DNA from: a bacterium
Lineage (GTDB): Bacteria; Patescibacteriota; Minisyncoccia; 1-14-0-10-42-19
DNA length: 64,000 bases
Assembly (NCBI GenBank): GCA_030690215.1
Contig: JAUYHD010000004.1
Span: 31,090-95,089 of the forward strand
Reading direction: 5' to 3'
The translations under genes were made by a program, and so were the position numbers. Below the pieces are notes generated by a model that saw only the letters and a list, made by a program, of their open reading frames with translations, was not told the origin of the DNA and made no database searches. Shown here in pieces: positions 14,881-53,421 of this stretch (positions within the stretch are counted from its first letter, which is position 1; every line of letters begins with the position of its first letter).

Positions 14881-14920
<40 letters not shown>

Positions 14921-33360: not shown

Positions 33361-34023
33361 CTAACTGGGCGCGTGATTTTTTATTTTTCTACGAAGCGCG
33401 TATAAACTCGCCCCGGTGATACCCAGCATAAGCCCCAACACAACAATAAAATAAAATGGATTGCCCGATATAAATGCATCGCTTAGATACACAAGGGTTG
33501 TCGCGGCGAATATTTCATAGAGCAATGTTGCAACGAGATATTTTGCAAAATGATACCGTACCATGCCTAACGCGTATCCTCCAATTTCTGAAGGAATCGC
33601 AAACCGAAAAAGCAAAACGAGCCCAAATTCGGCTTTCCCGGAAATCCGGTGTCTATAATAATTAATATGCTGCATTGTCTTTGTGCGAGAAAAAAATGGC
33701 GCGCCAAATATCCCGCCAATGGCATACACGCCCATACCCCCAATAAGCCACCCGCATACAAGCAACACAATTGTAAATGTTTCACCCCACACCGGAATAA
33801 CTAACGGCACCAACGGGGCGCTTGAAAACGGCGAGATGACAACAGCAACCACCGCAAGCCCGATAAACACCAACACTGCCAACACAGGGCTTTTTTCAAT
33901 ATGCTCCCCCACAAATCCCTGGGCTATCGCGAATACATCCTGTAAAAAGCCCGAAGACCAAAACAAAACCCCAATACAGAGAAGTAATAACGCTACCAAT
34001 ACGTGCTTTTTCTCAAAAATCAT
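33361..34023 (-). CDS. DedA/VTT-domain-like membrane protein
   Basis: A 220-aa polytopic membrane protein. ...RFAIPSEIGGYALGMVRY... resembles the DedA core. Tentative. Confidence 0.45.
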   Translation of the reverse strand: MIFEKKHVLVALLLLCIGVLFWSSGFLQDVFAIAQGFVGEHIEKSPVLAVLVFIGLAVVAVVISPFSSAPLVPLVIPVWGETFTIVLLVCGWLIGGMGVYAIGGIFGAPFFSRTKTMQHINYYRHRISGKAEFGLVLLFRFAIPSEIGGYALGMVRYHFAKYLVATLLYEIFAATTLVYLSDAFISGNPFYFIVVLGLMLGITGASLYALRRKIKNHAPS

Positions 34024-37100: not shown

Positions 37101-37219
37101 GCGACGACGAACGATTCGAACCAAAAAAGCGCCAGCCCCAGCCATACAACGAAAACGAACGGTTTGAGCCGAAACGAAACGGATACCCGCGTCCTACATA
37201 TACCGAACAGTCCCGCTAA
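34157..37219 (+). CDS. Giant cell-surface protein: signal peptide, about nine tandem Ig-like repeats of about 100 aa, and a C-terminal TM anchor with a Tyr/Gly/Asn-rich cytoplasmic tail
   Basis: A 1020-aa ORF. The unit PTVDIKANGSDGPITIGFNSSATVSWTSSNASSCTASGAWSGSKSLSGSQSTGNLTGSKTYTITCTG..SDSDSVT is repeated with variation (DNA repeats at about 34740-36470). There is a CCCC motif just before the TM helix LLYMLLFLLIVLAIIAMV. Confidence 0.8.
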   Translation: MRSVLRILQSNFINYMRTITKNMRYVMFFAGFMGIAVFLAFSPSTSHAISFPSCSLSPQQDRIIVQFNPITKLWANEQYKMGGPFSASIPAGEYKITAMSFDDHLERSHQNQPNEQWFMILKNNNSTVAQTGSTNDLPDNADVRVDVVNISLVIPQSVTSIITFHTMYPNSNPNSIYPICAAFDRIHQPEPPTVDIKANGSDGPITIGFNSSATVSWTSSNASSCTASGAWSGSKSLSGSQSTGNLTGSKTYTITCTGSDGSDSDSVTINVQPPASPTVDIKANGSDGPVTIGFNSSSNLTWTSSDASSCTASGAWSGSKSLSGSQSTGNLTGSKTYVITCTGQGGSDSDSVTVTVQSQNLPTVDITATPSSIIQGDTSSLGWTSSNADSCFATNGWSGTKSLSGNQAVSPQNTATYTITCSNGAGQASDSVTITVSVPQSLPTVAISANPNQVAQGNPSVLTWTSANADTCTASGASDWNGSRNIFGNQVVSLFNTTTYTITCSNSTGQASDSVTVSVQSITPSADIKANGSDTSITISPNSSATISWTSSNAASCSISPTGWFGTSGSQSTSNLTNSITYTINCSGVTGGTASDSVTVNIQDNLPTVDISANPGFITQGNSTVLTWTSSNADSCFATNGWSGTKSLSGNQSTFLTQTTTYTITCYNNAGQATDSVTVSVQAITPTVDITAAPITINRGESTVLVWSSANADSCFATNGWSGSKSRSGSEVTAPQFDTTYTVTCAKGGQSVSDSVTVFVNANQPPITGTFNVACSVSSPTITLGDSVSFVAGYAGGVAPVTFQWSGDVTGFTQSRVTNFSTTGTKFATVTVTDAQGRNNSANCSVQVVPATVVSAAPPQPPTVITATTNTQPTSCCCCNGVPTQIQYDSNGNPITVASDTQDRSMLASLFTTQSGNPSTLLYMLLFLLIVLAIIAMVRYLFVDKPVRRYEYGYRQEQYPYERKGYGYQNGNSNGYANGYASDDERFEPKKRQPQPYNENERFEPKRNGYPRPTYTEQSR

Positions 37220-38146: not shown

Positions 38147-39310
38147 CTATTCAGAAAGAAAGCGGGCAAGAACGGTTTTCTGCATCTCGGAACTTCCCTC
38201 ATACAATGTGGAATTAAGAATGCCAATCGTGCGCTCAACTGCCGTCAGGTCATTCGTTATACAAGAACCGCCAAACACCCTGCATGCGCGCACCGCAACA
38301 TCAAGCGCACGCTCCGTTGCAACTAATTTTGTGACAGAAGCAGGAATAGTAATCCGCTTGCCGGCTTTTTTCATGCGCATCGCAATGCGCGACGCTTCAT
38401 CAATCGCCGCCCACGAAGATAACAATTCCGCATACCACGCAGCAAATGAAAATTGAAGCGCTTGATTTTCCCATATTTTTTTCCCGAACTGTTCTCGGTC
38501 TTTTGCTTCCTCTAACGCTTCATCAAAAATAGAAGCAGCCATTCCTATCGCCTGCGCCGCTATATTAATACGCCCATTATCAAGCGTCGCCATCGCAATA
38601 GAAAATCCCTTATGGATTCCCCCCAACAAAGAATCTTCCAGCATGCTTACATTATCAAAAAACACGCTACAAAAATCAGACGATTTTAAACTGCGCTTCT
38701 CTGTTTTCTTCACAACCAAAGATCCGCTCTGTTTTGCCTCTTGGAGGTCAACAATAAATGCGGAAATATCGTGCTTGCCTTCTCCGGTACGCGCAAACAC
38801 AATCCCAACAGAAGCAAGTAGGGCATTTGTTATAAATCTTTTTTCACCCTTGAGCACCCACCCACCGTCTTTTTTGGTCGCGCGAGTTTCGAGAGAAGCC
38901 GCATCCGATCCTGCGCCTGGCTCAGTAAGCATAAAACAGCCGAATATATCTCCGGAAGCAATACGCGGAAGATATTTCTTCTTTTGGGCTCGGGTACCCG
39001 CATAGATAATGGGAAAGGCGGCAAGCGAAGAATTTGCCGTCCAAATCAGATGAAGACCGCCGGAAATATAGGCAAGTTCGCGGGCGATTACAGACAACTG
39101 CCGCATGGAACACCCTGCCCCGCCGTACCGCTTCGGTATCGAACACCCGAACAAAAATATCTTTGCCATTTCTTGAACCATTTTTGTCGGGAAAGAAGCA
39201 TTCTTATCGCATTCAAGGATTTCTTCATGCATATCTTTCCCCATCTTTCTGATAACTTCTATGAATCCTAGCGTTACATCATCATATCGATATGCATCAA
39301 ACCATTCCAT
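38147..39310 (-). CDS. Acyl-CoA dehydrogenase
   Basis: A 387-aa ORF. It has ...FMLTEPGAGSDA..., GxKxFITN, and the catalytic-Glu block STLYEGSSEMQKTVLARFL (YEGT/S-E-I/M-Q). Confidence 0.85.
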   Translation of the reverse strand: MEWFDAYRYDDVTLGFIEVIRKMGKDMHEEILECDKNASFPTKMVQEMAKIFLFGCSIPKRYGGAGCSMRQLSVIARELAYISGGLHLIWTANSSLAAFPIIYAGTRAQKKKYLPRIASGDIFGCFMLTEPGAGSDAASLETRATKKDGGWVLKGEKRFITNALLASVGIVFARTGEGKHDISAFIVDLQEAKQSGSLVVKKTEKRSLKSSDFCSVFFDNVSMLEDSLLGGIHKGFSIAMATLDNGRINIAAQAIGMAASIFDEALEEAKDREQFGKKIWENQALQFSFAAWYAELLSSWAAIDEASRIAMRMKKAGKRITIPASVTKLVATERALDVAVRACRVFGGSCITNDLTAVERTIGILNSTLYEGSSEMQKTVLARFLSE

Positions 39311-39424
39311 TGTGCGTTCTCCTTCTCGTTTTCAAATCTGTGCATACGGTAACACGCTTTATCAAAAAAGAAAAGCGTTCCGATTGACCGAAACGCCCTT
39401 ATACTATCTTCATTATTTCAAAAA

Positions 39425-39547
39425 TCAATTGTGCATCATCGCCCCGACGGCAAAAAGGATAAGAGCTGCTAATAATGCCTTCCCTGCGATACGCAGCACA
39501 TCCGCTTCGGTCATATTCTCCACAATTTCGTTTACTTTTTTGAACAT
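39425..39547 (-). CDS. Candidate 40-aa single-pass membrane peptide (MFKKVNEIVENMTEADVLRIAGKALLAALILFAVGAMMHN)
   Basis: A strong RBS (ggaggtagg) lies 5 nt upstream of the ATG. Below the ORF-track size cutoff. Confidence 0.35.
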   Translation of the reverse strand: MFKKVNEIVENMTEADVLRIAGKALLAALILFAVGAMMHN

Positions 39548-39621
39548 ACCTACCTCCTTTTTTTATTAGATTATATATGATTTTTTCTGAATACGCAACC
39601 CGTCTGGCGTATTCACGCCTT

Positions 39622-39659
39622 AAAACATTCTAACATTCTGCAGAATGTTAGAATGTTTT
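39622..39659. promoter_or_regulatory. 38-bp perfect palindrome 'aaaacattctaacattct gc agaatgttagaatgtttt' (candidate bidirectional terminator or operator)
   Basis: Seen directly. A related split inverted repeat is at 57036..57094. Confidence 0.6.
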
Positions 39660-39694
39660 AATCCCACCCTCCATGACAACGTTTATTATTTTTT

Positions 39695-40474
39695 CTATTG
39701 GCGCAAGCCGTATCCTTTCCGAAAAAGAATATAGACCGCAAAACTCAAAAAAATAATGAGAGAAAAAATAATACCAAAACCCAAAAGAGCGCTTGCTTCA
39801 TGCACGCCAATCATGGAGTAACGGACTCCATCTATAAAATAGAAAAAGGGGTTGAGGCGTACAACGGTTTGCAGAAATGGCGGGAGCATGGTGATAGAAT
39901 TAAAAACCCCGCCCAAAAAGCTTAATGGCGTAATCACAAAAACCGTCCAGATGTTAAGGTGCTCAAAATTATCGGCCCATACCGATACCAAAAGCCCCAG
40001 CAGAGAAAAGACAACGGAAACAGAAAGAAGATAAAAAATAAATAACCCGAAATGCGCTATATTCGCCGCGTTAAAAAACACGGCAATCAAAAAAACGCCA
40101 AGCCCCACCAAAACGCCCCGCGCAATGCCGCTCACCACACATCCGATAATCATTTCAACGTGGGAAAAGGGGGTGATAAGAATTTCTTCAATACTTCGGG
40201 TAAACCGCTGGATATAGAGCGAGAATGATGTCTGGGAAAACGCCGACGAAATAACGCTCATCATAAGAATGCCGGGTAATACAAAATCTATGTAGGGCGC
40301 ACCTGCAATCGTATCTATTCTGCCCCCGACAATAAAACCAAAAACAAAAATATATAACAGCGCTGAAATCCACGGAGCAAGAAGCGCTTGGACTGCGACG
40401 CGAAAAAAGCGCTCAACTTCGCGCCACACGAGCATATACATGCCGACCCAATTAACGCGCATGCGGTGTTTCAT
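39695..40474 (-). CDS. ABC-2 type transporter permease
   Basis: A 259-aa ORF with six TM segments, overlapping the upstream ATPase gene by 23 nt. Confidence 0.8.
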   Translation of the reverse strand: MKHRMRVNWVGMYMLVWREVERFFRVAVQALLAPWISALLYIFVFGFIVGGRIDTIAGAPYIDFVLPGILMMSVISSAFSQTSFSLYIQRFTRSIEEILITPFSHVEMIIGCVVSGIARGVLVGLGVFLIAVFFNAANIAHFGLFIFYLLSVSVVFSLLGLLVSVWADNFEHLNIWTVFVITPLSFLGGVFNSITMLPPFLQTVVRLNPFFYFIDGVRYSMIGVHEASALLGFGIIFSLIIFLSFAVYILFRKGYGLRQ

Positions 40475-41198
40475 CGTGATGATTGGTTAATTCAAGATAT
40501 TTTTCTTCCAATGTTTTCCCGCCATCAAGAAAATCTTTCTTGTCCCCTATCGCGATTATTTTTCCTCCATGAATAATTCCGATGCGGCCGCATAATTTTT
40601 CTACCTCCTCCAAATAATGCGAGGTGAGCAAAATAGTTTTTCCGGCTTCATTTAAATCTTTTAAATACCGCCATATCTCCCGGCGGAGCTCTACATCAAC
40701 GCCCGCCGTAGGTTCATCTAAAATAAGCAATTTTGGATCATGCACCAAAGCGCGGCCCATCATAACACGGCGCTTAAGCCCGCCTGAAAGCGTTCGGAAC
40801 TGTTTTTCGGCATGTTCTTGCAATTCAAATGTATGAATGATGTGGGCGACTCTTTTTTTGCGTTCATCGGCGCGAAGCCCATAATACCCCGCCATATATT
40901 CAAAAATGTGGCGGACTTTCATAAATGGATCAACTGTGAATTCCTGCGGCGAAAGGCCTATCTGCATGCGCGCTTCCCGATACTGCGTCCGTACATCATA
41001 TCCGAATACTGAAATCTCCCCCTCTTCAAAACGCGCAATGCCCGTGACGCACTGAATGGTGGTTGTTTTGCCCGCGCCATTCGGCCCTAAAAAGCCGAAA
41101 AATTCGCCTTCTTGTATAGACAAAGAAACATCTTCCACAGCGCGAATATGCTTATAGTGTTTCTTTAAATTGCGAATACTAAGCGCGTCTTGTTTCAT
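40452..41198 (-). CDS. ABC transporter ATP-binding protein
   Basis: Walker A GPNGAGKTT, signature LSGGLKRR, Walker B LLILDEPT. Confidence 0.9.
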   Translation of the reverse strand: MKQDALSIRNLKKHYKHIRAVEDVSLSIQEGEFFGFLGPNGAGKTTTIQCVTGIARFEEGEISVFGYDVRTQYREARMQIGLSPQEFTVDPFMKVRHIFEYMAGYYGLRADERKKRVAHIIHTFELQEHAEKQFRTLSGGLKRRVMMGRALVHDPKLLILDEPTAGVDVELRREIWRYLKDLNEAGKTILLTSHYLEEVEKLCGRIGIIHGGKIIAIGDKKDFLDGGKTLEEKYLELTNHHDETPHAR

Positions 41199-41204
41199 AC
41201 CCCG

Positions 41205-41620
41205 TTAAAAATTTCCAATTTTAAATTTCAAATTTTTCCGCCAGAGGCGGATCTGCCTCAGGCAGATAATCAATGCTGTAATAAATTAATTCCTAAAAAA
41301 TAAGGTCGTTTTATTCATTAAAAAATTAAAAATTGAATAAAAATTAAAAATTAATAATTAAAAATTAAACACTACTGATACTATTTCGTATTACCCCGTA
41401 AGACGTAAAGGTTTTGCTTTTCCGCCGAAGACGGATCTGCCTCAGGCACGACTAACGGGGCATACCCCGTTAGGCACTATCGCATGGTAAGCCATGCGTT
41501 CGCCGTTTATTATTCGTATCATAGGATTCGTTTTTCATTTATATATATATGGGGTGTATACCAATGACTTACAAGAACGCATTATGCGAGAGTGCCATAC
41601 GGGGCATATCCAAATATACT
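41205..41620. repeat. Cluster of dispersed-repeat copies (two family-A hairpins 'ccgccagaggcggatctgcctcaggca', family-B 'cccgtaagacgtaaaggttttgcttt...ccatacgggg', and AT-rich 'aattaaaaatt' runs)
   Basis: The sequence is identical to segments at 6955-6998, 25560-25830 and 24078-24125. Confidence 0.7.
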
Positions 41621-41677
41621 ATCAAAAAAAGAACAGCCCGTAGAGGGCTGTTCTTATATGTAAAAATATCCGCGTAA

Positions 41678-41899
41678 TTACATTGATGCTGACCCTCCCT
41701 TCCCTGCGCAATGCAAGCAATCTTTCTTATGGCTGATAACAAGATACACTGCCGAGATACCAACAAGAATATAAATAATTTTAGAGATCATGACATCCGA
41801 TCCTCCAAAAATAGTTCCGATTTCCCAGTTAAAAATGGCAAACACAAGCCAATTAAGTCCCCCCACAATAACAAGCAAAAATGCTATTTTGTGCAACAT
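41678..41899 (-). CDS. DUF378 family small membrane protein
   Basis: IAFLLVIVGGLNWLVFAIFNWEIGTIFGG...IIYILVGISAVY matches the DUF378 pattern. Confidence 0.6.
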   Translation of the reverse strand: MLHKIAFLLVIVGGLNWLVFAIFNWEIGTIFGGSDVMISKIIYILVGISAVYLVISHKKDCLHCAGKGGSASM

Positions 41900-42007
41900 G
41901 CAAATCTTTCAATTAAAACCTGACGACCTTTGCAATCGTATATAATCTATCCCTCTAGTATACCAGGCGTGTACACACCCGAGCTACATTGCTGTGAACA
42001 TGGCTCA

Positions 42008-42511
42008 CTATCGTTTGATAGCGAGCATCTCTACCGTAAAAATAAGCGTTGCATTGGGAGGAATTGCGCCCGGAATACCGCGCTCGCCGTATGCAAGTTC
42101 GGGCGGTATGGTAAGTTTGCGCACCTCTCCCACCTTCATGCCTAAAACTCCCGCATCCCAGCCCGGAATAACTTCGCCTGCCCCTAAAACAAAATTGAAT
42201 GGGGTGCCGCGGTCAACGCTTGAATCAAACTTCGTATCGTCTTGGAGCCATCCCGTATAATGAACCGTTACCACGTCCCCTTTTTGTGCGCCATTTCCGG
42301 AGCCCTCTTGGATAATAGCAATCTGCATCTCTACTTCTTTTGCTCCTTCGGAAGAAGCGGGCGTTGAATCATTTTTATTTTCTTCTGGCATGGCATTTTC
42401 TTGTGTGTCGGCTGAAGGCGCGGGCTGATTAAGAGAATTTTTTGCTATATACATGCCTCCGCCAAGCAACAAAACAACAATAATAATCGCATACGACCAC
42501 TTATTATTCAT
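42008..42511 (-). CDS. FKBP-type peptidyl-prolyl cis-trans isomerase, membrane-anchored
   Basis: [22 protein letters not shown]...[36 protein letters not shown]. Confidence 0.85.
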
Positions 42512-42615
42512 ACGGCTTTACGAAAAATAACATATAAAGTAATTATAACAATTAACCTTTTTCCTATTATACAATGGCATATGAAAGGTACCAAACCCCA
42601 AGGCAAGCCCTGGAC

Positions 42616-42722
42616 CCGCCCAAAAAACGCATACGTTTTTTGGGCCGTTCCGCCGCAAGCGGCGGGGTTTTCACCTTTGCTGCCTGCGTCGCTCAGAAAT
42701 GAATGTGCTTGCACATTCATTT
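42616..42722 (+). promoter_or_regulatory. Three consecutive perfect hairpins (gcccaaaaaacg/cgttttttgggc, ccgccgcaagcggcgg, gaaatgaatgtgc/gcacattcatttc) in the divergent region upstream of the desaturase gene
   Basis: Seen directly. The overlapping 90-aa ORF (42508..42780) is probably spurious. Confidence 0.5.
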
Positions 42723-42847
42723 CGTTCGCTATCCTCGGCAGATAAAAAAATACGAACCCGAAACACAAACATGGCTTCACAAAACAAGCAATCTACGGTA
42801 TGATACATACCAATCGGCTATTTAAAAAATGAATATCGGAGACGACA

Positions 42848-43924
42848 ATGAACAAAATTACTTTTGCAAAAGCGACGACATTTAGCGAAGAACTTCAAAA
42901 AAATGTAGAGGAATATTTCAAAACAACCGGAGAAAAAAAGAGGGATAACCCTCTTATGTTTTTCAAAGCAGCGCTCATGTTTGCTTGGTGTGGGGCAGCA
43001 TATTATCTGCTCATTTTTACTACCAACACCTGGGTAGAAGCAATCGGTTATACCCTATTTCTCTCATTTGCGGTATTAGGAATTGGGCTTAATGTCCAGC
43101 ATGACGGAAACCATGGGGCATTCTCAAAAAGGAAATGGGTCAACTACATCATGGGATATAGCCTTGATATTATAGGAGGCAGTTCGTTTTTTTGGCGCAA
43201 AAAACATAATATAGCCCACCACACATACACAAATATCCAGGGCGCAGATGATGACATAGACCTCGGGATATTTGCCCGCATGGCGCCCGAACAACCCTGG
43301 CGACGTTTTCATAGATTCCAGCATATTTATCTCTGGTTTCTCTATGGGCTTATGTTCTTCAGATGGCATTTTGACTTCGAGGCTTTCCGGAAAAGCCTCT
43401 TTCCCCCAAAAGACGGACCGCAACCCGGCACATGGGATAGAATTACGTTCTTAGGAGGGAAAATTATATTTTTTAATTTAGCATTCATCATTCCTATGCT
43501 CTATCACCCATGGTGGGGAGTGCTTGTATGCTACGCCTTTGGCATATTCAGCATCAGCGCTGTGACTGCAATTGTATTTTCTCTCGCTCATACTATGGAT
43601 GAAACAGAATTTCCCCTGCCGAATCCCCAAACACTGCATATACCAAGCGAATGGATGAAACATCAACTACAGACAACAGTAAACTTTTCACCAAACAATC
43701 CGCTTTTGACATTTTATTTGGGCGGGCTCAATTATCAGGTAGAACACCATCTTTTTACCAGAATCTCTCATATTCATTACCCAAAGCTCGCACCCATCGT
43801 ACAAGAAACATGCAAAAAATTTGGCATTCACTACCGCGTCAATACAACCCTATGGGGCGCGATACAATCGCATTATCAATTCCTCAAAAAAATGGGACAG
43901 CCCCACATGCAACCAATCGCATAA
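42848..43924 (+). CDS. Membrane fatty-acid desaturase with three His boxes (HDGNHG, HNIAHH, QVEHHLF)
   Basis: A 358-aa ORF. It has the His-box pattern of diiron membrane desaturases. Confidence 0.8.
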   Translation: MNKITFAKATTFSEELQKNVEEYFKTTGEKKRDNPLMFFKAALMFAWCGAAYYLLIFTTNTWVEAIGYTLFLSFAVLGIGLNVQHDGNHGAFSKRKWVNYIMGYSLDIIGGSSFFWRKKHNIAHHTYTNIQGADDDIDLGIFARMAPEQPWRRFHRFQHIYLWFLYGLMFFRWHFDFEAFRKSLFPPKDGPQPGTWDRITFLGGKIIFFNLAFIIPMLYHPWWGVLVCYAFGIFSISAVTAIVFSLAHTMDETEFPLPNPQTLHIPSEWMKHQLQTTVNFSPNNPLLTFYLGGLNYQVEHHLFTRISHIHYPKLAPIVQETCKKFGIHYRVNTTLWGAIQSHYQFLKKMGQPHMQPIA

Positions 43925-44113
43925 AAATATGTTTATCAAATACCTCGCGCGCTCGCGGGGTTTTATTTTTTATACGCATATACAAAAGACTGAGGTCGTG
44001 TATAATCATAATTAATGGCGTAACTTGGTGAGATGTGCGGGTGCGTCCCAAAGCCCCCATCCTCATAAAAGTTTGCTAGGGTCATACATTATTAATCAAC
44101 ACATACAATCAAA

Positions 44114-44296
44114 GTGGCTTACGATGACAGGAGCGGCCCCCCTACGGACCGCAAAATGTATCAGGGCGATTGGAAGTGTTCAAACTGCGGAGCTGAAATA
44201 AAAGAACTCCCGTTTGAGCCGGATCCTGCACGCATGGATAAACTCCAATGCAAGGAGTGCTACCGACAAACCCGTCCCCCAAAACGCCGATACTAA
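44114..44296 (+). CDS. Small zinc-ribbon protein (CSNCG...CKEC), 60 aa
   Basis: A CxxC-x19-CxxC arrangement. The start is uncertain (GTG, or the internal ATG). Confidence 0.4.
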   Translation: MAYDDRSGPPTDRKMYQGDWKCSNCGAEIKELPFEPDPARMDKLQCKECYRQTRPPKRRY

Positions 44297-44374
44297 AAGA
44301 CACAAAAAAGCCCGCATTCCTGCGGGTTTTTTTGTATCCAAAAGAAAAATCTGTTTGCCCCCACACCTGTTTTC

Positions 44375-44611
44375 TTACAAGATACTTGTCATGATCCTTC
44401 GTTTGAGTTGAGCGAGCGCATTACCATCTTTTTTTAACGAGTGCTCTCGATGTCTCGCATCTTCCTCTGAAAAATACGCTTCATAATATCGCAACTCAAA
44501 CGGAGCATGTGATTTTGTTGAACGCACCTGCCCCTTGTTGTGTTCTTCAAACCTTCGTCTCAAGTCGCTTGTTGAACCCACATACAGATTCTTATCCATT
44601 TTGCCCCGCAC
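44375..44611 (-). CDS. GIY-YIG nuclease (catalytic domain only). The likely start is the ATG at 44597-44599.
   Basis: NLYVGSTSDLRRRFEEHNKG. The 5' end abuts repeat family C, copy 2. Confidence 0.8.
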   Translation of the reverse strand: MRGKMDKNLYVGSTSDLRRRFEEHNKGQVRSTKSHAPFELRYYEAYFSEEDARHREHSLKKDGNALAQLKRRIMTSIL

Positions 44612-44889
44612 CAGAAAGCCCCGAGCGTAAGCTCAAGGGATGAACCCCGTTAGAAGTCTTGGGGGCAGAAAAATTTGTACTCAAATTTTTCTTTTACGCA
44701 CAAAGATGGATTTTCTCATAACACATAAACCAACCCCCCCCCCTCTCTCTCTTTTTTTTGTCCTTTGTGAGGATATGCCAGACTTCTAGCGGGGTGAATG
44801 GTATAAAACGGGCTTTCGGTGCGGGATTTCGCGCAACGAAAGCTCGAAGGGGTTGATACCCCGAGCGTAAGCTTCGGGGAGCGCTTCAC
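44599..44889. repeat. Repeat family C, copy 2, carrying a nested insertion of about 160 bp (about 44648-44808). The insertion contains a 'ccccgttagaagtc' family-B-like motif and a C/CT homopolymer tract.
   Basis: Aligned by eye to 31877..32012. Confidence 0.5.
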
Positions 44890-44955
44890 TTTTCAAGATA
44901 TAGACATAGAACATACAAACATCATAGCCGACTTGAGACGCATAAGAAAACAGGT

Positions 44956-45459
44956 GTGGGGGTTTGCTATACTAATTACAATACCATGAGAAAAATGATT
45001 ATACAAAAAACACCCTATTCTCTTACGATAAAACGAGGCAGAACGGGGTTGGGCTTATTCACAAACAACAGCATCAGAAAAGGCAGATTTGTAATTGAAT
45101 ACGGAGGCGACCTCCTGCCGACCAAAGAAGCAGACAGACGCGGCGGCAAATTTCTCTTCAAAATAAATAAAGATTGGGCAGTAGACGGAAAGTCGCGCAA
45201 AAATATTGCGCGCTATATGAATCATTCCTGCCGTCCAAACTGCGAAGACAAAATAAAAAAGAAAAGAAAAAGAATTTTTATATATTCCAAAAAAAACATC
45301 CGAGCCGGAGAAGAACTCTCATTTGACTACGGCAAAGAATATTTTGATGAATATATTAAACCGAAGGGATGCAAATGCATCACATGCCTAGAAAAAAAGA
45401 CGCGTAATACCCGTCACTACCATATCAAGGCCAACCGCTCCTATAAAAAATCCGCTTAA
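44956..45459 (+). CDS. SET-domain protein (putative protein-lysine methyltransferase) with a post-SET CxC motif
   Basis: NHSCRPNC, GEELSFDYG, CKCITC. Confidence 0.75.
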   Translation: MGVCYTNYNTMRKMIIQKTPYSLTIKRGRTGLGLFTNNSIRKGRFVIEYGGDLLPTKEADRRGGKFLFKINKDWAVDGKSRKNIARYMNHSCRPNCEDKIKKKRKRIFIYSKKNIRAGEELSFDYGKEYFDEYIKPKGCKCITCLEKKTRNTRHYHIKANRSYKKSA

Positions 45460-45999
45460 GCGCAAAAATATTCCCATTACTTTATCAAACGCGACCTTCA
45501 ACTTTTTAGAAAACATCTGCCGAAACATCAGCAACACAAAAATACAGATATAGTTAATACCGAGAATCATTGAAAGTATAGAGAGGCTTTCGGACGCGTT
45601 AAATTCGGACCCTATCAAAATACTTACTGAAATAGTCCCCGCCCCCACAAAAAAAGGGAGGGCTATTTCGGATGCAAGATCATCCAAGCTTTCTTTCATC
45701 CCCAAAAGAGCGAGACGCCCCTGCACAACGAACAAGAACGCTTGAGAAAAAATAATAATGCCTCCAAAAATCCGGAATGATTCAAAGTGGATTCTAAAAA
45801 CTTCTTCAAACAGAAATGTCCCCGAAAGCGAGAAAATGAAAAAAATAGCAAGAGAGATCAGAGACGCTTTCAACAGAACAACCAAAAAATCCTTTCGCGA
45901 AAGCGCAGACATGACCGGCTGAAGATACAAAAAAAGCGCAAATGGATTGAGGAGCGCAAGAAATGCAAGAATATAGGCGACGGCGGGAGAAGAGAACAT
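45388..45999 (-). CDS. MarC family (UPF0056) integral membrane protein
   Basis: A 203-aa ORF with six TM segments, LNPF near the N-terminus and FFVGAGTIS. It overlaps the convergent SET gene by 72 nt. Confidence 0.65.
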   Translation of the reverse strand: MFSSPAVAYILAFLALLNPFALFLYLQPVMSALSRKDFLVVLLKASLISLAIFFIFSLSGTFLFEEVFRIHFESFRIFGGIIIFSQAFLFVVQGRLALLGMKESLDDLASEIALPFFVGAGTISVSILIGSEFNASESLSILSMILGINYICIFVLLMFRQMFSKKLKVAFDKVMGIFLRLSGFFIGAVGLDMVVTGITRLFF

Positions 46000-46002
46000 G
46001 TC

Positions 46003-47307
46003 CTAAAAATCACGCAGATACCCCCAATTATGGAGCTTGTCGCTATCCTCAAACCATCTGTCCGCGATATCTTTGCGGTAATACATATTCGGCATCATGA
46101 TGTTTTTTATCCTCTTGTACGCCTGCGCTTTCGCCTGCTTCATTGTTTGCCCCGTCCCAACAACAATCAACACGACACCCGAAGTACCGGTGATAACCCA
46201 TTCGCCGTTTACTTCTTTTACGTCTTCAATGTGAATCCCGTCACGTTGCGGTTTTTTAAAAAAGATAACCGCATCCTTGGAGTTAATTTCAAATGTTTTG
46301 ACATCCCGATAAAACGGGAATGGCGGGACCACAAGACGAACGCCCACTTGAAACCCGCTTCGCGTACGGAGTTTTATCTGTTCGCCTGCCGCCAACTGAT
46401 ATAAAAATTCTCCAATGGGATTGAGCATGCCCTCCTGCTGAATGCTGATTGTAGGATAGCCGAAACGCGACGTAAACTCCAAAGGATAAATGCCATTTGC
46501 ATTCACAATGCAATTTAAATCAATGTAGCCGACATACCCCTCCTCTGCGAGCTTCCCTTCCATTTTTTTAAGCGTATTATTGAACACATTATTCGGCGCG
46601 CTCCAAAACATACTGGTTCCCATCTCGCCTGTAGACGGGCCTATATCCCCGGGAAACAATTTTTTGTGCTCAAAATTGACGTTAATCGGATATACAAATT
46701 CTTTCCCGTTGAAAAATGCCCCCACCCCAACCTCAACCCCCACCACGCGCTTTTGGAGCAAAAACAATTTTATTTTTTTTGAGAGTGATTTTTTGTATGC
46801 CAGAAGAAGCTGAATGACATCTTTGCCGTCTTCTTCCTCTCCCACAAACAAAAGCTGTTTTATATTCTGCGCGTCCAAGCTTGATTTAATGACATACCGG
46901 CCGGGATTATTTTTTACATATTCAATAGATTCATCAAACGAAGAAAAATTTTGATATGGCAAAATAAGCACCCCTGCCTTTTTGAGTTCCTCTTGGCCAA
47001 ATGAACGGTCATCCTCCAGCATATCGGTATAGGCAGTCCCCCCAACCACAAGCTTGCCGTCTTTACGAAGCCTCTGCGCCTTTTTCCCATGGCCCAGCAC
47101 ATCGTCAAACACAATAACGTCGGCCCATTCAACATCTTTTTGCCAATCATCTGTTTTTGCGATAAAGCCGTCGCCAATATCTTTTTCGGTGGAAGATTCA
47201 ATGAAATAGCGGACATCGTGCCCTTCACGCGCCACCTGCCAAGCGATATCCGTAATAAGACCCTCTATGGACACAAAAAGAAATTTTTTCTTTTCTATCA
47301 TATTCAT
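46003..47307 (-). CDS. PurD-like ATP-grasp ligase (phosphoribosylamine--glycine ligase homologue)
   Basis: 434 aa. NFEHKKLFPGDIGPSTGEMG corresponds to the PurD DHKR...GDxGPNTGGMG block, and the length and N-domain pattern are PurD-like. The canonical GGREHA motif is not obvious. Confidence 0.6.
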   Translation of the reverse strand: MNMIEKKKFLFVSIEGLITDIAWQVAREGHDVRYFIESSTEKDIGDGFIAKTDDWQKDVEWADVIVFDDVLGHGKKAQRLRKDGKLVVGGTAYTDMLEDDRSFGQEELKKAGVLILPYQNFSSFDESIEYVKNNPGRYVIKSSLDAQNIKQLLFVGEEEDGKDVIQLLLAYKKSLSKKIKLFLLQKRVVGVEVGVGAFFNGKEFVYPINVNFEHKKLFPGDIGPSTGEMGTSMFWSAPNNVFNNTLKKMEGKLAEEGYVGYIDLNCIVNANGIYPLEFTSRFGYPTISIQQEGMLNPIGEFLYQLAAGEQIKLRTRSGFQVGVRLVVPPFPFYRDVKTFEINSKDAVIFFKKPQRDGIHIEDVKEVNGEWVITGTSGVVLIVVGTGQTMKQAKAQAYKRIKNIMMPNMYYRKDIADRWFEDSDKLHNWGYLRDF

Positions 47308-47408
47308 ATGTTTATCCTACACCTCTATTCAAAAAAATAAAAAGTGTGAATAAGTTTTTTATATAAAAAAACGTCCGGCGATACGCCAGACGTACTATGT
47401 ATGTTGTA

Positions 47409-48323
47409 TTATGTGCTTGCTGTTTTTGGCAACTGCACTATGTTTACATAATCCAAGCCCCTGATAATCCAGTAGATTGGATCTTTTTCGTGCCATCGAA
47501 CGCCTCCGAAATTCGCATTACCCGGCCTCTGATGATGATTGTTATGATAACTTTCTCCCAACATGAGAAAATCAAATGGCAAAAAATTCCGCGACGTATC
47601 GGGGGTGTCAAAATTTCGATAGCCGACAAGATGCGCGAACCAATTAACAATCGCTCCATGAATCGGCCCCATGGCGCATGTAAAAGCCCAAAACGGCAAA
47701 ATATACAGCCATTCAAGAGGAGGAGTTATGTACGGAAACCACCCTAAAGAAATAAGAGGGTATGGGGATACGATTACATAGAAAATAAAATACGCAATGC
47801 CCCATGCGAGCCGCATATAATATGACTCGGCGAATGCGTCAAAAGCATCCCAGGTGGGCAAATTTTTCTTAAATCTCTCTTCTACGGGGAATGATCCTTT
47901 CCCGATACCGCTGTATGCTTCCCGCGTTCTCGACATCATAGAAATAATATCATTATCATATCGGGGCGAATGAACGTCCTTTTCTGTATCCGCATACGCG
48001 TGATGTATGCGATGCAATATTCCATATGTTTTTGGGCTTAAATAGGAAGAACCCATAGTAAGCCACGAGAATATGAAAAAAAATTTCTCCCATCTTGGAG
48101 TCATCTTAAACTGGCTATGAGCGGCGTATCTGTGATTAAAAAAGGATTGCGAGAACAGCGAAAGAAACCAAAAACAGAAAAAGTAAAAAACAATCCACCA
48201 CATGGTTCCATCTCCTTTTTGTAAATGAGCTCTATGCGAAAAATCAAATCGTTGTTTGATACTAATGCTAACAATCGCCCGCCGCACTGTCAACGAATCG
48301 CGCGCTTCTTCTTTACTCCACAA
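47409..48323 (-). CDS. Acyl-CoA (delta-9-type) membrane desaturase with His boxes HRYAAH, HRIHHAY, HNNHHQ
   Basis: A 304-aa ORF. The three-box pattern is typical of the stearoyl-CoA desaturase family. Confidence 0.75.
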   Translation of the reverse strand: MWSKEEARDSLTVRRAIVSISIKQRFDFSHRAHLQKGDGTMWWIVFYFFCFWFLSLFSQSFFNHRYAAHSQFKMTPRWEKFFFIFSWLTMGSSYLSPKTYGILHRIHHAYADTEKDVHSPRYDNDIISMMSRTREAYSGIGKGSFPVEERFKKNLPTWDAFDAFAESYYMRLAWGIAYFIFYVIVSPYPLISLGWFPYITPPLEWLYILPFWAFTCAMGPIHGAIVNWFAHLVGYRNFDTPDTSRNFLPFDFLMLGESYHNNHHQRPGNANFGGVRWHEKDPIYWIIRGLDYVNIVQLPKTAST

Positions 48324-48365
48324 AAAAACCGCTGATGCGCAAACGCAATCAGCGGTAGTTTGGTT

Positions 48366-49019
48366 TTAATGAATTATCGTGCCGAGAGGAATCTTCCGCA
48401 CCGAATCAGCTACCGTGCCCAGAATTTCGTTTTCTATATCCAGAAGCGCTTCGTCGTGTGCAACCCAAAAGCCCTCAAACGCCAACACAACAACATCCAT
48501 AGGAACAGAAATCGTAAGAATATTTTTTTCTATATTCTCATAGCATTGACGAATCGTCTGTTCCCATTTTTCGTTGGCAAACTCCATGAACAAACCCTTA
48601 TTCATTGAAAAAAGAATGAATAAAAATACGGCTATCGGCATTGAATATGAAACATCGCCCCGCTCGGCATCGTCTACAATCGTTTGGTTCATAACATCAA
48701 GGTATTCAATAAAGCCGGCTGTATGTTTTCTTCCGAGTTTCTCAAGCTCTTCGGTCCATTGCCCCTGATCAAGCAATCCGCCCCATACGGTAACCCCAAA
48801 AATATGCGGGATTGCTTCAACATCAGAAATGCGCTGGTCATCAATTTCTCCGCAAAAAACGGCTCCTCCGTCCTGTACTACATACGAGGGCACATCTGCC
48901 ATATATTGAAAACCTATCTCTTTTAGCTGTTCTGCTACTGCCCGAAAATATGTCGCATCGGAACGTATAATCAAAAGCCTTTTTGCGTTTTTGTTTTCTT
49001 CAGTTGCCATACGGAACAC
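48366..49019 (-). CDS. Hypothetical protein (217 aa), co-operonic with the desaturase and the SET gene
   Basis: ORF only. It overlaps the upstream SET gene by 20 nt. Confidence 0.45.
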   Translation of the reverse strand: MFRMATEENKNAKRLLIIRSDATYFRAVAEQLKEIGFQYMADVPSYVVQDGGAVFCGEIDDQRISDVEAIPHIFGVTVWGGLLDQGQWTEELEKLGRKHTAGFIEYLDVMNQTIVDDAERGDVSYSMPIAVFLFILFSMNKGLFMEFANEKWEQTIRQCYENIEKNILTISVPMDVVVLAFEGFWVAHDEALLDIENEILGTVADSVRKIPLGTIIH

Positions 49020-49407
49020 TCTCCTCCCCTAATGTTTTATAATCGACTGTCAATTCCTCGCCCGCATTGATATCACGCTGTGCGAAGTAATTGTATTGCT
49101 CATCATGATATATGTTCGGGGTGTCCGAATGGTTCAAATACCATCCTATGCACATCTTGTGAAAATCATGAGGCACCCAAAAGCCATCTTCATCCCTCAC
49201 CCCATATTTTTCAATAAGAGCTTTTTCTTCCTCATATTCTATATCGGAAAATTTTATAAAATCAGCATCTTCATTATCAAATAATCCCAGAAAAGAACCG
49301 GCGGGGATATCAAGTGCTGCGAAAACTCCAACACCCTGGATGAAAGATTGTCCTAGCACAAAATAAATAGTGCGCTCTCCTTTCTTTCTAGTAGCAAAAC
49401 TTGCCAT
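49000..49407 (-). CDS. SET-domain protein no. 2 (136 aa). The start is reassigned to the ATG at 49405-49407, which follows a gggaggagag RBS.
   Basis: GVGVFAALDIPAGSF..., NHSDTPN, AGEELTVDY. The track ORF extends to 49620, but the internal ATG has a strong SD. Using it removes a 78-nt divergent overlap. Confidence 0.7.
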   Translation of the reverse strand: MASFATRKKGERTIYFVLGQSFIQGVGVFAALDIPAGSFLGLFDNEDADFIKFSDIEYEEEKALIEKYGVRDEDGFWVPHDFHKMCIGWYLNHSDTPNIYHDEQYNYFAQRDINAGEELTVDYKTLGEESVPYGN

Positions 49408-49542
49408 TTTTACTCTCCTCCCTCTCTTTATTGTTAATTCTTTAGAGAAAATATCATTTTTTGTGTGGTTTGTCAATTGTATTAGTGGGCAAACCATGGT
49501 AAAAATGAGAGAATATTCTTTAAAAATATACGGAGGCAATAA

Positions 49543-50898
49543 ATGCTTAAAGATGAACGGCTGGATTCTTTGGCAAAACACGGCGCGAATGTCGCGCAAT
49601 TTGCGAGCTTTGACCCCCAAGGCAATATACGATTTGCCCGGGTGCGAGAACTTCCAAAAATAAAAACGGAAGATCTGAAAAAAGTAATATCTTTTGTGCT
49701 GGAACGCGGATGCGGTTCCGCAAACATACGTACATTCCTTCCCGAAAAACCCGATGGCAATCCATTTGAGTACGGGCTTACCAACAGCGAAGAAATTGCC
49801 GCAAAAATACGCGCCTATGCGTCACAGGGGTACTACACCATTCTTAACGAAACGATAGATATACATGACGGCGGGCTTTCAGGGGTGCTGTTCGGCAAAA
49901 TCATGGAAGGAGCGCCAAAAGATACCCCTCGCTGTGTGGAAAAGCCCGGATGCATGCTTCTCCCCCGCTCCATTGGATTCCAACTTATCAACGCAATATA
50001 CGGATTTCATTTCCATACCCCGTACGGCGAACATTGCAGAATTGAATTTTCCGTACATCCCGCACCCACAGGCCATCTCCGAGACAACCAAATTATTTGG
50101 CAAGTGGACGAATATGAGGATAGGGCGACCCCGCAAACAACCCCCCAAATCTTATGGCCGAATAAATACAGTGAATTTATCGGCGATAAAACATTTGGTC
50201 TCCTGATTGCATATCTCTTGGGATTTCCTGTGCCATTTACACGCGTATTTGCACGGGGAGTTCCCATGTTTAATTTCGGGGCAGAAATAGGCAAAAAGGA
50301 ACCGGTATGGGTCCGCACAGCGCCGCGCATACAAACACCCGGACGATTCAAAACAAAACGCGGGTGGCTCGATCCGTTTGAGATTATGCAAAAAGACGAC
50401 CCCGACAACAAAGACATAGCCGCAATACTTATCCAAGACGGGCTTTCTGCGGAATATTCCGGATCTGCAATAACCGACTACGCGGGCAATATAATAGTTG
50501 AGGGATGCAAGGGATATGGCGATAATTTTATGCTTGGCACAATCGCTCCGGACAAGCTTCCGCAAGAAGTTCTGGGGGGCATCACATTCATCTACGGCCG
50601 GCTCAAAGAAATTCTAAATGACATTAGATTTGAATGGGTATACGACGGAAGAAGAATCTGGGTTGTCCAGCTTCATACCGGAAAATCAGAAACCTCGGAA
50701 AATGTCGTATATCCGGGTGTACCAAAGCAATGGATTGATTTTGATCCGAAAGACGGATTGGAAGTTCTCCGCGAAATGGCGAAAGAAGTGGAAGGAAAAA
50801 ATATAGGCATCGTCGTACGGGGCCATGTGGGCATCACTTCACATGTTGGCGATATTCTCCGGAGAGCGAAGATTCCTTCATATATAGACAAACGATAA
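49543..50898 (+). CDS. Hypothetical 451-aa protein, possibly a PEP-utilising-enzyme-like phosphotransferase (PPDK_N-like N-terminus plus a swivel-domain-like C-terminus). It lacks a PEP/pyruvate TIM-barrel domain.
   Basis: An RBS (acggagg) precedes the ATG. The N-terminal LAKHGANVAQF resembles the PPDK_N GGKGANL motif. The C-terminal GIVVRGHVGITSHVGDILRRAKIPS resembles the PEP-utilisers mobile-domain TSH signature. Weak, by-eye similarity. Confidence 0.4.
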   Translation: MLKDERLDSLAKHGANVAQFASFDPQGNIRFARVRELPKIKTEDLKKVISFVLERGCGSANIRTFLPEKPDGNPFEYGLTNSEEIAAKIRAYASQGYYTILNETIDIHDGGLSGVLFGKIMEGAPKDTPRCVEKPGCMLLPRSIGFQLINAIYGFHFHTPYGEHCRIEFSVHPAPTGHLRDNQIIWQVDEYEDRATPQTTPQILWPNKYSEFIGDKTFGLLIAYLLGFPVPFTRVFARGVPMFNFGAEIGKKEPVWVRTAPRIQTPGRFKTKRGWLDPFEIMQKDDPDNKDIAAILIQDGLSAEYSGSAITDYAGNIIVEGCKGYGDNFMLGTIAPDKLPQEVLGGITFIYGRLKEILNDIRFEWVYDGRRIWVVQLHTGKSETSENVVYPGVPKQWIDFDPKDGLEVLREMAKEVEGKNIGIVVRGHVGITSHVGDILRRAKIPSYIDKR

Positions 50899-50959
50899 AA
50901 AAACGAAACAAAAAAAATAAACGGCACACACTGTGCCGTTTTTCTTTTTAGACATACAT

Positions 50960-51610
50960 TCATTTTTGGAACTTTGGGAAAAATCTTCCTACGCGCTTCA
51001 TATAGTCGCTGTATTCGCTCCCAAATCGTAATACAAGGTTTGCTTCTTCTTTTTTCGTACGAATAACGAGCAACAAAAACACAGCCATCCCCGAAAGAAA
51101 AACAAACCAATTCCCTAAAGCAAGAGAATTCGCGATAAAAAGTGAGCAAAGCACTACATAAAATGGATGACGAACCCAGCGATACGGACCACTTGAGATA
51201 AATGTATGTTCGTTCCGTATTACGACCGTATCGGTTAGATTTTTACCGAGATGCCGGAATGTCCATATCCACAAAACTCCCGCACATACTCCTAATGCCA
51301 CGCCAGTCCAACGAAGCCACAATGGCAACGCGACAGCAGACCATTGCATGAACTCAGGGCTAATCAAAAAAACAATAACTCCGCCCATGCTAAGAAGCCC
51401 GCCCAAGCGAATACCTATAAGTATAAACAGTCCCTCTTGCATGCGATCTAGCTTTTCTTTTGTTTTTGAACGAACTCGATAATACCCCGCCCACGGCACT
51501 ACTATCAAAAAACCGACAATCATTACTGCCCGGATTATAGTATCTTGATCCATTCCCCTATTATCCCCAAGATAAGAAAAAATGGAAGCCAAAAAGAAAA
51601 ATCCCGGCAT
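50960..51610 (-). CDS. Isoprenylcysteine carboxyl methyltransferase (ICMT/PEMT) family membrane methyltransferase
   Basis: FISSGPYRWVRHPFYVV and a C-terminal ...EE..L...FG..Y..Y pattern. Confidence 0.7.
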   Translation of the reverse strand: MPGFFFLASIFSYLGDNRGMDQDTIIRAVMIVGFLIVVPWAGYYRVRSKTKEKLDRMQEGLFILIGIRLGGLLSMGGVIVFLISPEFMQWSAVALPLWLRWTGVALGVCAGVLWIWTFRHLGKNLTDTVVIRNEHTFISSGPYRWVRHPFYVVLCSLFIANSLALGNWFVFLSGMAVFLLLVIRTKKEEANLVLRFGSEYSDYMKRVGRFFPKFQK

Positions 51611-51637
51611 GCCGGGATTTTTCTCAAACTGATTTTT

Positions 51638-52905: not shown

Positions 52906-53421
52906 TTAGAGTCTGCCAAGGGTCTTCATTGCTTCTCTCGCATCCTCTTTTGTTACCCCTGACGATTGATTTTCTTTTTGTTTTTGGGGTAGATTTGAAC
53001 AAAGCCACAAAAAAAGACCTACACTCCCAAAGAAAAAGGCGGCCTTCGCTACAAATATACCGTATGATTCCGTAGAAATTTTTAGCGTTTTGGGATGTGG
53101 AAAATTTTTAGATATAGTATCGCTTGCCAGTAGTTCATTTGTCCTTTCGCGAATTTCCCTCTCTATCTTATTTTTAAAGAAGCTTGCTGTGAACGGCAAA
53201 TGAATACTTAATTCTACCTGTGACGAGCTTACAACAATTGTCCCATCAATAGAATGGCCTTTTACCAAAAAGCGGAAATTCCCAATATTTCCTGCCCATT
53301 TTTCTTCTCCATCAGTGATTTTATCCCGAGAGTATTTTTTCATATGCGCAGAAAATCCCTTCAAGCGTTTCAGTGCCTCTTCTTCTGACAGACCGTGCGG
53401 AAGAGTAATGTTTAATTCCAT
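52906..53421 (-). CDS. Hypothetical protein with a PHA_gran_rgn-like N-terminal domain and a C-terminal TM helix
   Basis: MELNITLPHGLSEEEALKRLKGF...ELSIHLPFTASFFKNKIEREIRERTNELL resembles the polyhydroxyalkanoic-acid-system family pattern. Tentative. Confidence 0.4.
   Translation of the reverse strand: MELNITLPHGLSEEEALKRLKGFSAHMKKYSRDKITDGEEKWAGNIGNFRFLVKGHSIDGTIVVSSSQVELSIHLPFTASFFKNKIEREIRERTNELLASDTISKNFPHPKTLKISTESYGIFVAKAAFFFGSVGLFLWLCSNLPQKQKENQSSGVTKEDAREAMKTLGRL

Follow-up and report, generated by a model that had tools for sequence, protein, structure and literature searches.

How a bacterium of the Candidate Phyla Radiation (CPR, Patescibacteria) comes to encode two different membrane fatty-acid desaturases, and on which lipids these would act, is the question raised by a 64-kb stretch of contig JAUYHD010000004.1 (assembly GCA_030690215.1), referred to below, in its full length of 64,000 nt, as the window. 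An initial annotation had grouped four genes of the window, encoding an acyl-CoA dehydrogenase (ACAD), two desaturases (designated here Des1 and Des2) and a membrane methyltransferase of the ICMT/PEMT type, into one lipid-remodelling set, and had suggested the active tailoring of acquired acyl chains. The CPR accounts for a large share of bacterial diversity, and the building of membranes without fatty-acid synthesis is a standing question; the enzyme families concerned are well known, and the unusual part is the host. In the present study, family membership, motifs, fold, synteny, insertion boundaries and nearest relatives of these genes were established. The preferred reading, to which we assign a probability of roughly 0.6, is that of a CPR host with two independently transcribed di-iron desaturases that would unsaturate acquired lipids.

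Two membrane desaturases of different classes

The four open reading frames (ORFs) named in the initial annotation are all present, and each of them scores above the Pfam gathering threshold, the family matches (E = 1e-14 to 1e-36) lying far beyond chance. None of the four reaches an NCBIfam equivalog cutoff, and the assignments are to be taken as family-level, not function-level, predictions. In the NCBI/PGAP annotation both desaturases are already labelled 'acyl-CoA desaturase', and the ACAD and ICMT-family genes already carry generic NCBI labels.

Des1 (358 aa; 42848..43924, + strand) is a membrane fatty-acid desaturase of the front-end type, which matches the Pfam family PF00487 (FA_desaturase) with 124.9 bits (gathering threshold 29.7; E = 6e-36) over profile positions 5–251 of 253. 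It had been described as a three-His-box desaturase, and its desaturase boxes are indeed intact, namely HDGNH (residues 85–89, 43100-43114, +), HNIAHH (residues 120–125, 43205-43222, +) and QVEHH (residues 297–301, 43736-43750, +); the third, however, is the glutamine variant (QxxHH) and not an all-histidine box. Glutamine in the third box is a signature of front-end desaturases. Residues H85, H89, H120, H124, H125, Q297, H300 and H301, as well as H248 and H272, do not vary across the 114 aligned homologues, and the boxes of the two desaturases hold up under profile verification, with PF00487 scores above the threshold and invariant ligand positions in Des1. Pfam finds a single domain in the 358 residues and no cytochrome b5 domain; the cyanobacterial delta-6 desaturase DesD likewise has none, so that Des1 is still compatible with the bacterial front-end subgroup. 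Des1 is 45% identical to a homologue from Leptolyngbya, and the annotation of its closest relatives is delta-6-type acyl desaturase, that of many relatives linoleoyl-CoA desaturase (KEGG K00508).

No solved structure is detectable for Des1 through sequence search. AlphaFold 2 modelling from the 114-sequence alignment gave a model (pLDDT 94.9, pTM 0.92) with the fold of membrane di-iron enzymes, composed of four transmembrane (TM) segments and a cytosolic cap, and the significant Foldseek matches of this model are membrane di-iron enzymes only. The best of them is a 370-aa subunit of the Chlamydomonas Orf2971/Ycf2-FtsHi complex (8XKS_K, 8XQW_M; TM-score 0.63), and AlkB (8SBB, 8F6T) is matched with a TM-score of 0.47. 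One membrane subunit was identified by the authors of the FtsHi structure as FAD6a, which they describe as omega-6 fatty-acid-desaturase-like, similar to SCD1 and with a fatty acid bound; the chain matched by the Des1 model is presumably FAD6a, the fold search itself naming only the complex.

Des2 (264 aa; 47409..48203, − strand) is of the delta-9, or stearoyl-CoA desaturase, type. It matches PF00487 with 67.7 bits (gathering threshold 29.7) and the NCBIfam DesA family NF049918 (DesA_fam_desat) with 103.4 bits, below the cutoff of 400, over profile positions 6–243 of 385. In phmmer alignments with mouse and human SCD1 (4YMK, 4ZYO), the motifs HRYAAH (residues 24–29, 48117-48134, −), HRIHH (residues 64–68, 48000-48014, −), NWFAH (residues 187–191, 47631-47645, −), continued as NWFAH-x2-GYR, and HNNHH (residues 220–224, 47532-47546, −) fall on the metal-ligand motifs of SCD1. 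The stearoyl-CoA type originally proposed is thus a fair description, and it is the start that needs revision: the mechanical ORF runs to 48323, and the true start is most likely the internal methionine at 48203, because the NCBI call agrees with it, an AAGGAG sequence lies about 8 nt upstream, a promoter-like site is found further upstream and the homologues are 244–260 aa long.

The family PF00487 also covers hydroxylases and ketolases, and with an assignment short of the equivalog level one may ask whether the two proteins carry out some other chemistry, such as hydroxylation or desaturation of a carotenoid, an alkane or a sphingoid base, or serve as an O2-consuming electron sink that protects an O2-sensitive fermenter. 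The weak NCBIfam matches of Des1 to CrtR and its structural similarity to AlkB can be cited in favour of this; yet the CrtR match (E = 9e-5) compares poorly with that to FA_desaturase (6e-36), the closest relatives of Des1 are of the delta-6 type by annotation, the Des1 model comes closest in structure to a FAD6-like acyl-lipid desaturase with a fatty acid, and Des2 bears the full delta-9 SCD signature, including GYR and NxxxH. Such an alternative chemistry seems unlikely to us.

Separate histories of the two desaturase genes

The orthologues of Des1 in Niyogibacteria-like contigs are 76–82% identical to it, the value for the protein of Candidatus Niyogibacteria CG10_big_fil_rev_8_21_14_0_10 being 76%. 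The CPR clade of Des1 consists of six protein clusters with identities of 54–82%, and homologues outside this clade, from Planctomycetota, Gemmatimonadota, Cyanobacteria, Bacteroidota and others, do not exceed 50%. Within a small CPR clade Des1 is passed on vertically, the gene having come into this clade from an ordinary bacterial family. A profile search of genome contigs with the Des1 alignment found at least 80 loci; among the matches listed all are non-CPR (36–46% identity) and even the Niyogibacteria orthologue is absent, so that this search attests to a wide distribution of the family and no more.

A gene of the Des1 family is also present in a second Patescibacteria genome (GCA_040384225.1, L088); its product P0087 is 59% identical to P0082, a protein from a clearly non-CPR context, as against 45% to the Des1 of the window; the family appears to have entered the CPR at least twice. 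A neighbour-joining tree placed P0087 near the window clade, a position that is contradicted by the pairwise identities and was taken as long-branch noise. In the same genome (9125-11074), the Des1-family gene lies directly downstream of an alpha/beta-hydrolase gene (Abhydrolase_5/Hydrolase_4), on the same strand and with a gap of 105 nt, and the two could be a lipase or lysophospholipase–desaturase pair in another CPR lineage.

For Des2, the best non-self homologue is 53% identical, and none is higher among 5.8 billion proteins. All named matches belong to Bacteroidota (Chitinophagales, Cyclobacteriaceae, Flavobacteriales), and two further top relatives are found in Bacteroidota-like contexts, with SusC/SusD beside P0129 and an outer-membrane beta-barrel protein gene beside P0123. 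The gene is absent from the five syntenic relative contigs (L002–L006), and no other CPR homologue was seen; it was apparently gained from Bacteroidota-like bacteria. A recent horizontal transfer detectable by composition was considered and rejected: the GC content of the gene and its GC content at third codon positions (GC3) match those of the neighbours, which indicates that the acquisition is not recent and that the base composition has since become host-like.

The comparison of gene order by tblastx against L002 and L006 and the alignment of junctions delimit a variable accessory segment (47308..51637, both strands) that carries the genes of Des2, a 217-aa protein, the SET-domain protein SET2, a 451-aa hypothetical protein and the ICMT-family protein, and is flanked by the conserved genes of a PurD-like protein and an RRM protein. 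In L006 the PurD-like gene is followed, without a break, by the gene of a 216-aa protein, 50% identical to the 217-aa protein of the window (48366-49019), and by that of the RRM protein, which is 90% identical. Relative to L006 the window thus contains two extra blocks, one being Des2, between the PurD-like and 217-aa genes, and the other SET2, the 451-aa hypothetical protein and the ICMT-family gene, which lie between the genes of the 217-aa and RRM proteins. In the junction alignment the 217-aa gene keeps its terminator upstream of Des2, and an intrinsic terminator of Des2 (47371..47393, −; a 10-bp stem with seven GC pairs and a T-run) marks the left insertion boundary. Between that retained terminator and Met 48203 a promoter-like site is weakly indicated (48265..48293, −; TTGACA-17-TAGCAT with TG); sites of this kind are not enriched in the window (21 against 31 expected from shuffled sequences), so single promoter calls carry little weight. 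Judged by these boundaries, Des2 is a self-contained single-gene cassette (putative promoter, gene, terminator) and a later arrival than Des1.

As the nearest relatives of Des2 are non-CPR and no other CPR homologue was seen, one could also think of an artefact, in which Des2, and the ICMT-family gene with it, stems from contamination with Bacteroidota or other DNA and was wrongly joined to a CPR contig. Des2 is flanked, however, within a few hundred bases by genes 50–90% identical to Niyogibacteria-like orthologues, its GC and GC3 equal those of the neighbours and its protein shares only about 50% identity with any from Bacteroidota. The same arrangement, moreover, was obtained with a second assembler: in an independent Logan assembly (L097) the order RRM–ICMT–451aa–SET2–214aa–Des2–PurD-like–MarC–SET1 is found on one 7.4-kb contig, which argues against a chimeric join. 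An artefact is accordingly highly improbable.

The acyl-CoA dehydrogenase and the methyltransferase

The stand-alone ACAD gene (387 aa; 38147..39310, −) was correctly recognised in the initial annotation, together with its YEGSSE block: the three Pfam domains Acyl-CoA_dh_N, M and 1 are matched with 83, 80 and 98 bits, all above the gathering thresholds, and the catalytic Y370-E371-G372 (38195-38203) aligns with YEGTNE of 5LNX and is invariant in the clade, as are the catalytic glutamate and the FAD contacts. The best PDB matches are short-chain enzymes and their kin (Bcd, SCAD, CarC, ACADs of Thermus and Bacillus; 185–224 bits), compared with only 122–142 bits for VLCAD and LCAD; these values give no sign of long-chain specificity, similarity being a mere indication of chain length. 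ACAD forms a clade with proteins of Niyogi-, Lloyd- and Kaiserbacteria (44–55% identity), from which the Bcd-like proteins of Firmicutes stand apart at 37–40%, and it is predicted to be a short-chain enzyme (Bcd/SCAD-like) whose clade extends across the Parcubacteria.

Neither electron transfer flavoprotein (ETF) nor beta-oxidation enzymes were found among the approximately 50 window ORFs screened. In the Kaiserbacteria genome GCA_016204805.1 (L094), the ACAD orthologue ends a cluster in the order thiolase, enoyl-CoA hydratase, carboxyltransferase, HMG-CoA-lyase-like protein, SDR and ACAD, alongside which (1-17000) lie genes of 2-oxoacid dehydrogenase E1/E2 (BCKDH) and a flavodoxin-like reductase; this layout indicates, as far as gene content can tell, catabolism of leucine or short branched acyl-CoA. 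The cluster is apparently complete and represents a richer metabolism than the CPR is usually credited with. In Lloydbacteria (L093), ACAD is two genes away from a thiolase. The ACAD proteins of the window and of L002 and L006 are only 51–53% identical, compared with 76–82% for Des1 and more than 90% for the PurD-like protein, and retain the catalytic residues, which points to rapid divergence or possibly a shift of substrate. ACAD gives no support to the tailoring of membrane acyl chains.

The methyltransferase (50960..51553, −) is a membrane protein that belongs to the ICMT/PEMT family, as had been proposed (Pfam ICMT 53.5 bits, gathering threshold 24; PEMT 43.8 bits); its gene, initially taken up to the limit of the mechanical ORF at 51610, most likely starts at Met20 (51553) and then encodes 197 aa. 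The match to NCBIfam isopcys_mtase (109.8 bits) is below the cutoff of 160, and the match to Methanosarcina ICMT 4A2N (E = 2.3e-15, residues 40–213) is full-length and includes the C-terminal cofactor-binding region. The nearest relatives, from Acidobacteriota and Planctomycetota (Planctomycetales), are at most 51% identical, and the gene is absent from the syntenic site in L002–L006. It is a further accessory acquisition, outside the desaturase function.

Linkage of the four genes

The four genes are distributed over both strands and are split by at least ten unrelated genes. Between ACAD and Des1 (39695..42511, −) Pfam identifies an ABC-2 transporter pair, a DUF378 protein and an FKBP isomerase, with gaps of 108–479 nt that contain terminators; between Des1 and Des2 (44114..47307, both strands), Pfam, alignment and ORF coordinates place a Zn-ribbon miniprotein, a GIY-YIG protein, the SET-domain protein SET1, MarC and the PurD-like ATP-grasp protein. 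Intergenic gaps measure 61–479 nt; terminator-like hairpins are enriched (41 versus 17.5 expected) and are found between the units. The four genes are therefore predicted to be separate transcription units, with neither an operon nor a conserved module to be recognised.

The five relative contigs share the order PhoH/PIN – ACAD – (ABC-2 pair) – DUF378 – FKBP – Des1 – SET – (MarC) – PurD-like, and only ACAD and Des1, of the four genes, are common to these close relatives. No ACAD is found near the Des1-family gene of the distant Patescibacteria genome L088, and the adjacency of ACAD and Des1, kept only in close relatives with the entire region in common, reflects their general synteny.

These data bear directly on the idea of a four-enzyme module, in which ACAD, Des1, Des2 and the ICMT-family protein act jointly on acquired acyl chains. 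Lipids or acyl thioesters are possible substrates in each of the four families, the genes lie within 13.5 kb, and ACAD is found in the neighbourhood of Des1 in five related contigs; but the genes occupy both strands with their own terminators and at least ten unrelated genes between them, the ACAD–Des1 adjacency belongs to general synteny and is lost in the distant genome, and Des2 and the ICMT-family gene are absent from the relatives. ACAD is, furthermore, of a short-chain type that in other CPR genomes occurs in clusters for leucine or short-acyl-CoA catabolism, and members of the ICMT family methylate very diverse substrates (NCBIfam matches to MddA and LmtA). We regard the module as very unlikely. 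The four-gene set of the initial annotation thus dissolves into separate units, two of them, Des2 and the ICMT-family gene, lineage-specific insertions, and what stands of the suggested tailoring of acquired acyl chains is a pair of desaturases of different classes, without the contribution of the short-chain, catabolic ACAD and of the ICMT-family protein.

Lipid supply and the proposed role of the desaturases

Published surveys describe Parcubacteria and other CPR bacteria as devoid of fatty-acid and phospholipid synthesis, yet possessing fatty-acid-based lipids, the acquired lipids being probably modified (PMC4508563, PMC7242380, PMC9948471, PMC10939385), and lipidomics suggests uptake and modification of lipids (PMC7242380). 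No fab, pls or acc genes were found among the approximately 50 screened ORFs of the window, and none in the flanks of about 20 kb in the relatives. The reverse situation, in which the organism has its own fatty-acid synthesis encoded elsewhere and the desaturases act simply, like those of Bacteroidota or cyanobacteria, on lipids made by the cell itself, can be entertained insofar as the view covers 64 kb of the genome and some CPR bacteria carry unexpected metabolic genes, such as the Kaiserbacteria cluster; given the cited surveys and the absence of fab, pls and acc genes from the window and the flanks of relatives, this ordinary metabolism is quite improbable.

The role that appears most likely for the two desaturases is that they would introduce double bonds into lipid acyl chains acquired from other cells and thereby adjust membrane fluidity. 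Here the substrates, the regiospecificity, the host origin of the lipids, the electron donor and the exposure to O2 are inferred, the reactions themselves following the established enzymology of the families. Des2 would introduce the first cis double bond (delta-9) into a saturated acyl chain, and Des1 would add one closer to the carboxyl end, its substrate being saturated chains or else the products of Des2 or of the host; in both cases O2, together with two electrons supplied by a soluble donor (such as ferredoxin or flavodoxin), would serve to abstract hydrogens from a chain held in a hydrophobic tunnel. Without fatty-acid synthesis there is no anaerobic FabA/FabB route, and hence the desaturases would be the only way to raise the unsaturation of acquired lipids.

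Several points weigh against the unsaturation of acquired lipids by Des1 and Des2. Both proteins score far below the NCBIfam equivalog cutoffs, and neither the regiospecificity nor the form of the substrate (acyl-CoA or acyl-lipid) can be read from sequence. The 64-kb window yielded no gene for a ferredoxin, a flavodoxin, cytochrome b5, an acyl-CoA synthetase or an acyltransferase. Many CPR bacteria, besides, live in anoxic settings, and the Niyogibacteria relative stems from the Crystal Geyser aquifer, which is largely poor in O2; an enzyme that depends on O2 would be of little use there.

A bolder version, in which a fermentative CPR episymbiont without fatty-acid synthesis uses the delta-9 enzyme to feed the front-end enzyme, so that saturated lipids stolen from the host become mono- and di-unsaturated, is possible but tentative, and we would not bet on it. 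If it were true, it would provide the first enzymatic basis for CPR 'lipid editing' and a specific need for O2 in a lineage without respiration. To our knowledge, no enzymes have been named so far for the lipid modification proposed in the CPR, and no report of fatty-acid desaturases in CPR/Patescibacteria was found in the open-access literature text; a possible lead on desaturases in OD1 was dropped, Nelson & Stegen 2015 containing no mention of them. The two intact desaturases of one CPR lineage offer concrete, clonable candidates for this modification, and their presence would imply exposure to O2 and a suitable reductant in these organisms.

Host organism and other features of the window

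The rRNA region of the window (10298-15839, −) shows oddities typical of the CPR. The 23S match on the minus strand spans 3712 nt, compared with 2925 nt of the model, which implies internal insertions; a group I intron match (11914-12119, −) lies immediately 3' of the 23S match, with an ORF of a LAGLIDADG endonuclease (11139-11618, −) beside them, and the 5S rRNA is located at 10298-10403 (−). No 16S rRNA gene is present within the 64-kb window. The gene order around Des1 is shared with Candidatus Niyogibacteria GCA_002772995.1 over more than 20 kb, and protein identities to Candidatus Niyogibacteria of 76 to more than 90% are observed. From the rRNA insertions, the intron, synteny and protein identity the host can be assigned to the CPR as a Niyogibacteria-related bacterium with a reduced genome, in keeping with the type of organism first suggested.

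Other genes of the window include rpoB, FtsW, L10/L12, a pilus ATPase and giant surface proteins without a Pfam match. One giant protein of 1227 aa is encoded at 26278-29961 (−) and another, of 1020 aa and partly kept in relatives, at 34157-37219 (+). The latter, with about eight tandem Ser/Thr/Cys-rich repeats of approximately 90 aa ('...DIKANGSDGP...SWTSSNASSCTASG...') and a C-terminal TM anchor, is likely a surface adhesin, to judge from this architecture. Genes with a possible relation to lipids, apart from those discussed above, are only those of a polyhydroxyalkanoate-granule-region family protein (52906-53421, −; PF09650, 42 bits) and of a VTT/DedA-family membrane protein (33361-34023, −); a 164-aa ORF (58681-59175) gave an insignificant match to Zn-phospholipase C (E = 0.04).

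The PurD-like ATP-grasp protein (46003-47307, −) contains GARS_A and GARS_C and scores 116 bits, against a purD cutoff of 288. It is more than 90% identical to the Niyogibacteria orthologue, with which it shares a 90%-identity cluster, far above the values of its neighbours, in a lineage expected to be without purine synthesis, and probably has a different, strongly constrained function. Downstream of Des1, a Zn-ribbon ORF of 46–60 aa (CxxC...CxxC; 44114/44156-44296, +), too small for mechanical ORF lists, shows strong DNA-level conservation in L002 and L006 and is followed by a strong bidirectional terminator (44311-44326). A tblastx match in all six frames at 44107-44346 had raised the possibility of a conserved intergenic RNA; Rfam gave only sub-threshold, terminator-like matches there, and the conservation is ascribed instead to the Zn-ribbon ORF and its terminator. 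Small ORFs of the GIY-YIG type (about 78–98 aa) are scattered in the window at 44375-44611 (−), 24476-24772 (−) and 63720-63992 (−), the first confirmed by Pfam and the other two judged by the N-terminal sequence only; similar small genes occur in GCA_040384225.1 and in the Kaiserbacteria genome GCA_016204805.1.

Two SET-domain (lysine methyltransferase-like) proteins are encoded within 5 kb, SET1 at 44986-45459 (+), kept in all relatives, and SET2 at 49000-49407 (−), found only in the accessory segment of this lineage. They share 31% identity over only 52 aa, which indicates that they are not recent paralogues, and a weak NCBIfam match to the Legionella effector AnkI/LegAS4 was obtained; bacterial SET proteins are usually tied to host interaction. 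The 451-aa hypothetical protein MDP2676156.1 (49543-50898, +) forms a singleton cluster, without any Pfam or NCBIfam match when E-values up to 5 are admitted. On visual inspection, the stretch ...GHVGITSHVGDILRRAKIPS... in its C-terminal part looks similar to the phospho-histidine swivel motif known from PEP-utilising enzymes; a single-sequence AlphaFold model of the protein (pLDDT 34) was unusable.

Comparison with known systems

The ICMT-family protein is like the Methanosarcina enzyme (Ma-ICMT, 4A2N) and is also related to the methanethiol S-methyltransferase MddA and the lipid A methyltransferase LmtA; its score is below the isoprenylcysteine-methyltransferase cutoff. As bacteria are not known to contain CaaX-prenylated proteins, its substrate is probably a different one. 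ACAD aligns end to end with Bcd (5OL2, 1BUC), SCAD (1JQI, 2VIG) and CarC (6FAH), with E-values from 1e-53 to 1e-65, and differs from them in forming a separate CPR clade (44–55% identity) and in lacking an EtfAB partner in the window.

Des1 shares with FAD6a and AlkB the membrane di-iron His-box fold at a sequence identity of only 13–14%; the His boxes of FAD6a are partly degenerate and its role is structural, whereas Des1 has kept all ligands. The pattern HDxxH / HxxxHH / QxEHH, the length of about 358 aa and the absence of a cytochrome b5 domain liken Des1, at the level of the family, to the front-end delta-6 type of DesD. Unlike known SCD-type systems, Des2 is CPR-encoded, as an isolated inserted cassette with no reductase or cytochrome b5 gene nearby. 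It resembles the short 'acyl-CoA desaturases' of Bacteroidota, of about 250 aa, in length and in an identity of 50–53%, and it shares HRxxxH, HRxHH, NxxxH and HNxHH, together with GYR, with SCD1, to whose type cyanobacterial DesC and Pseudomonas aeruginosa DesA also belong. Delta-6 enzymes of the classical kind require a delta-9 (or delta-9,12) substrate, and for Des1 only Des2 or the host could supply it.

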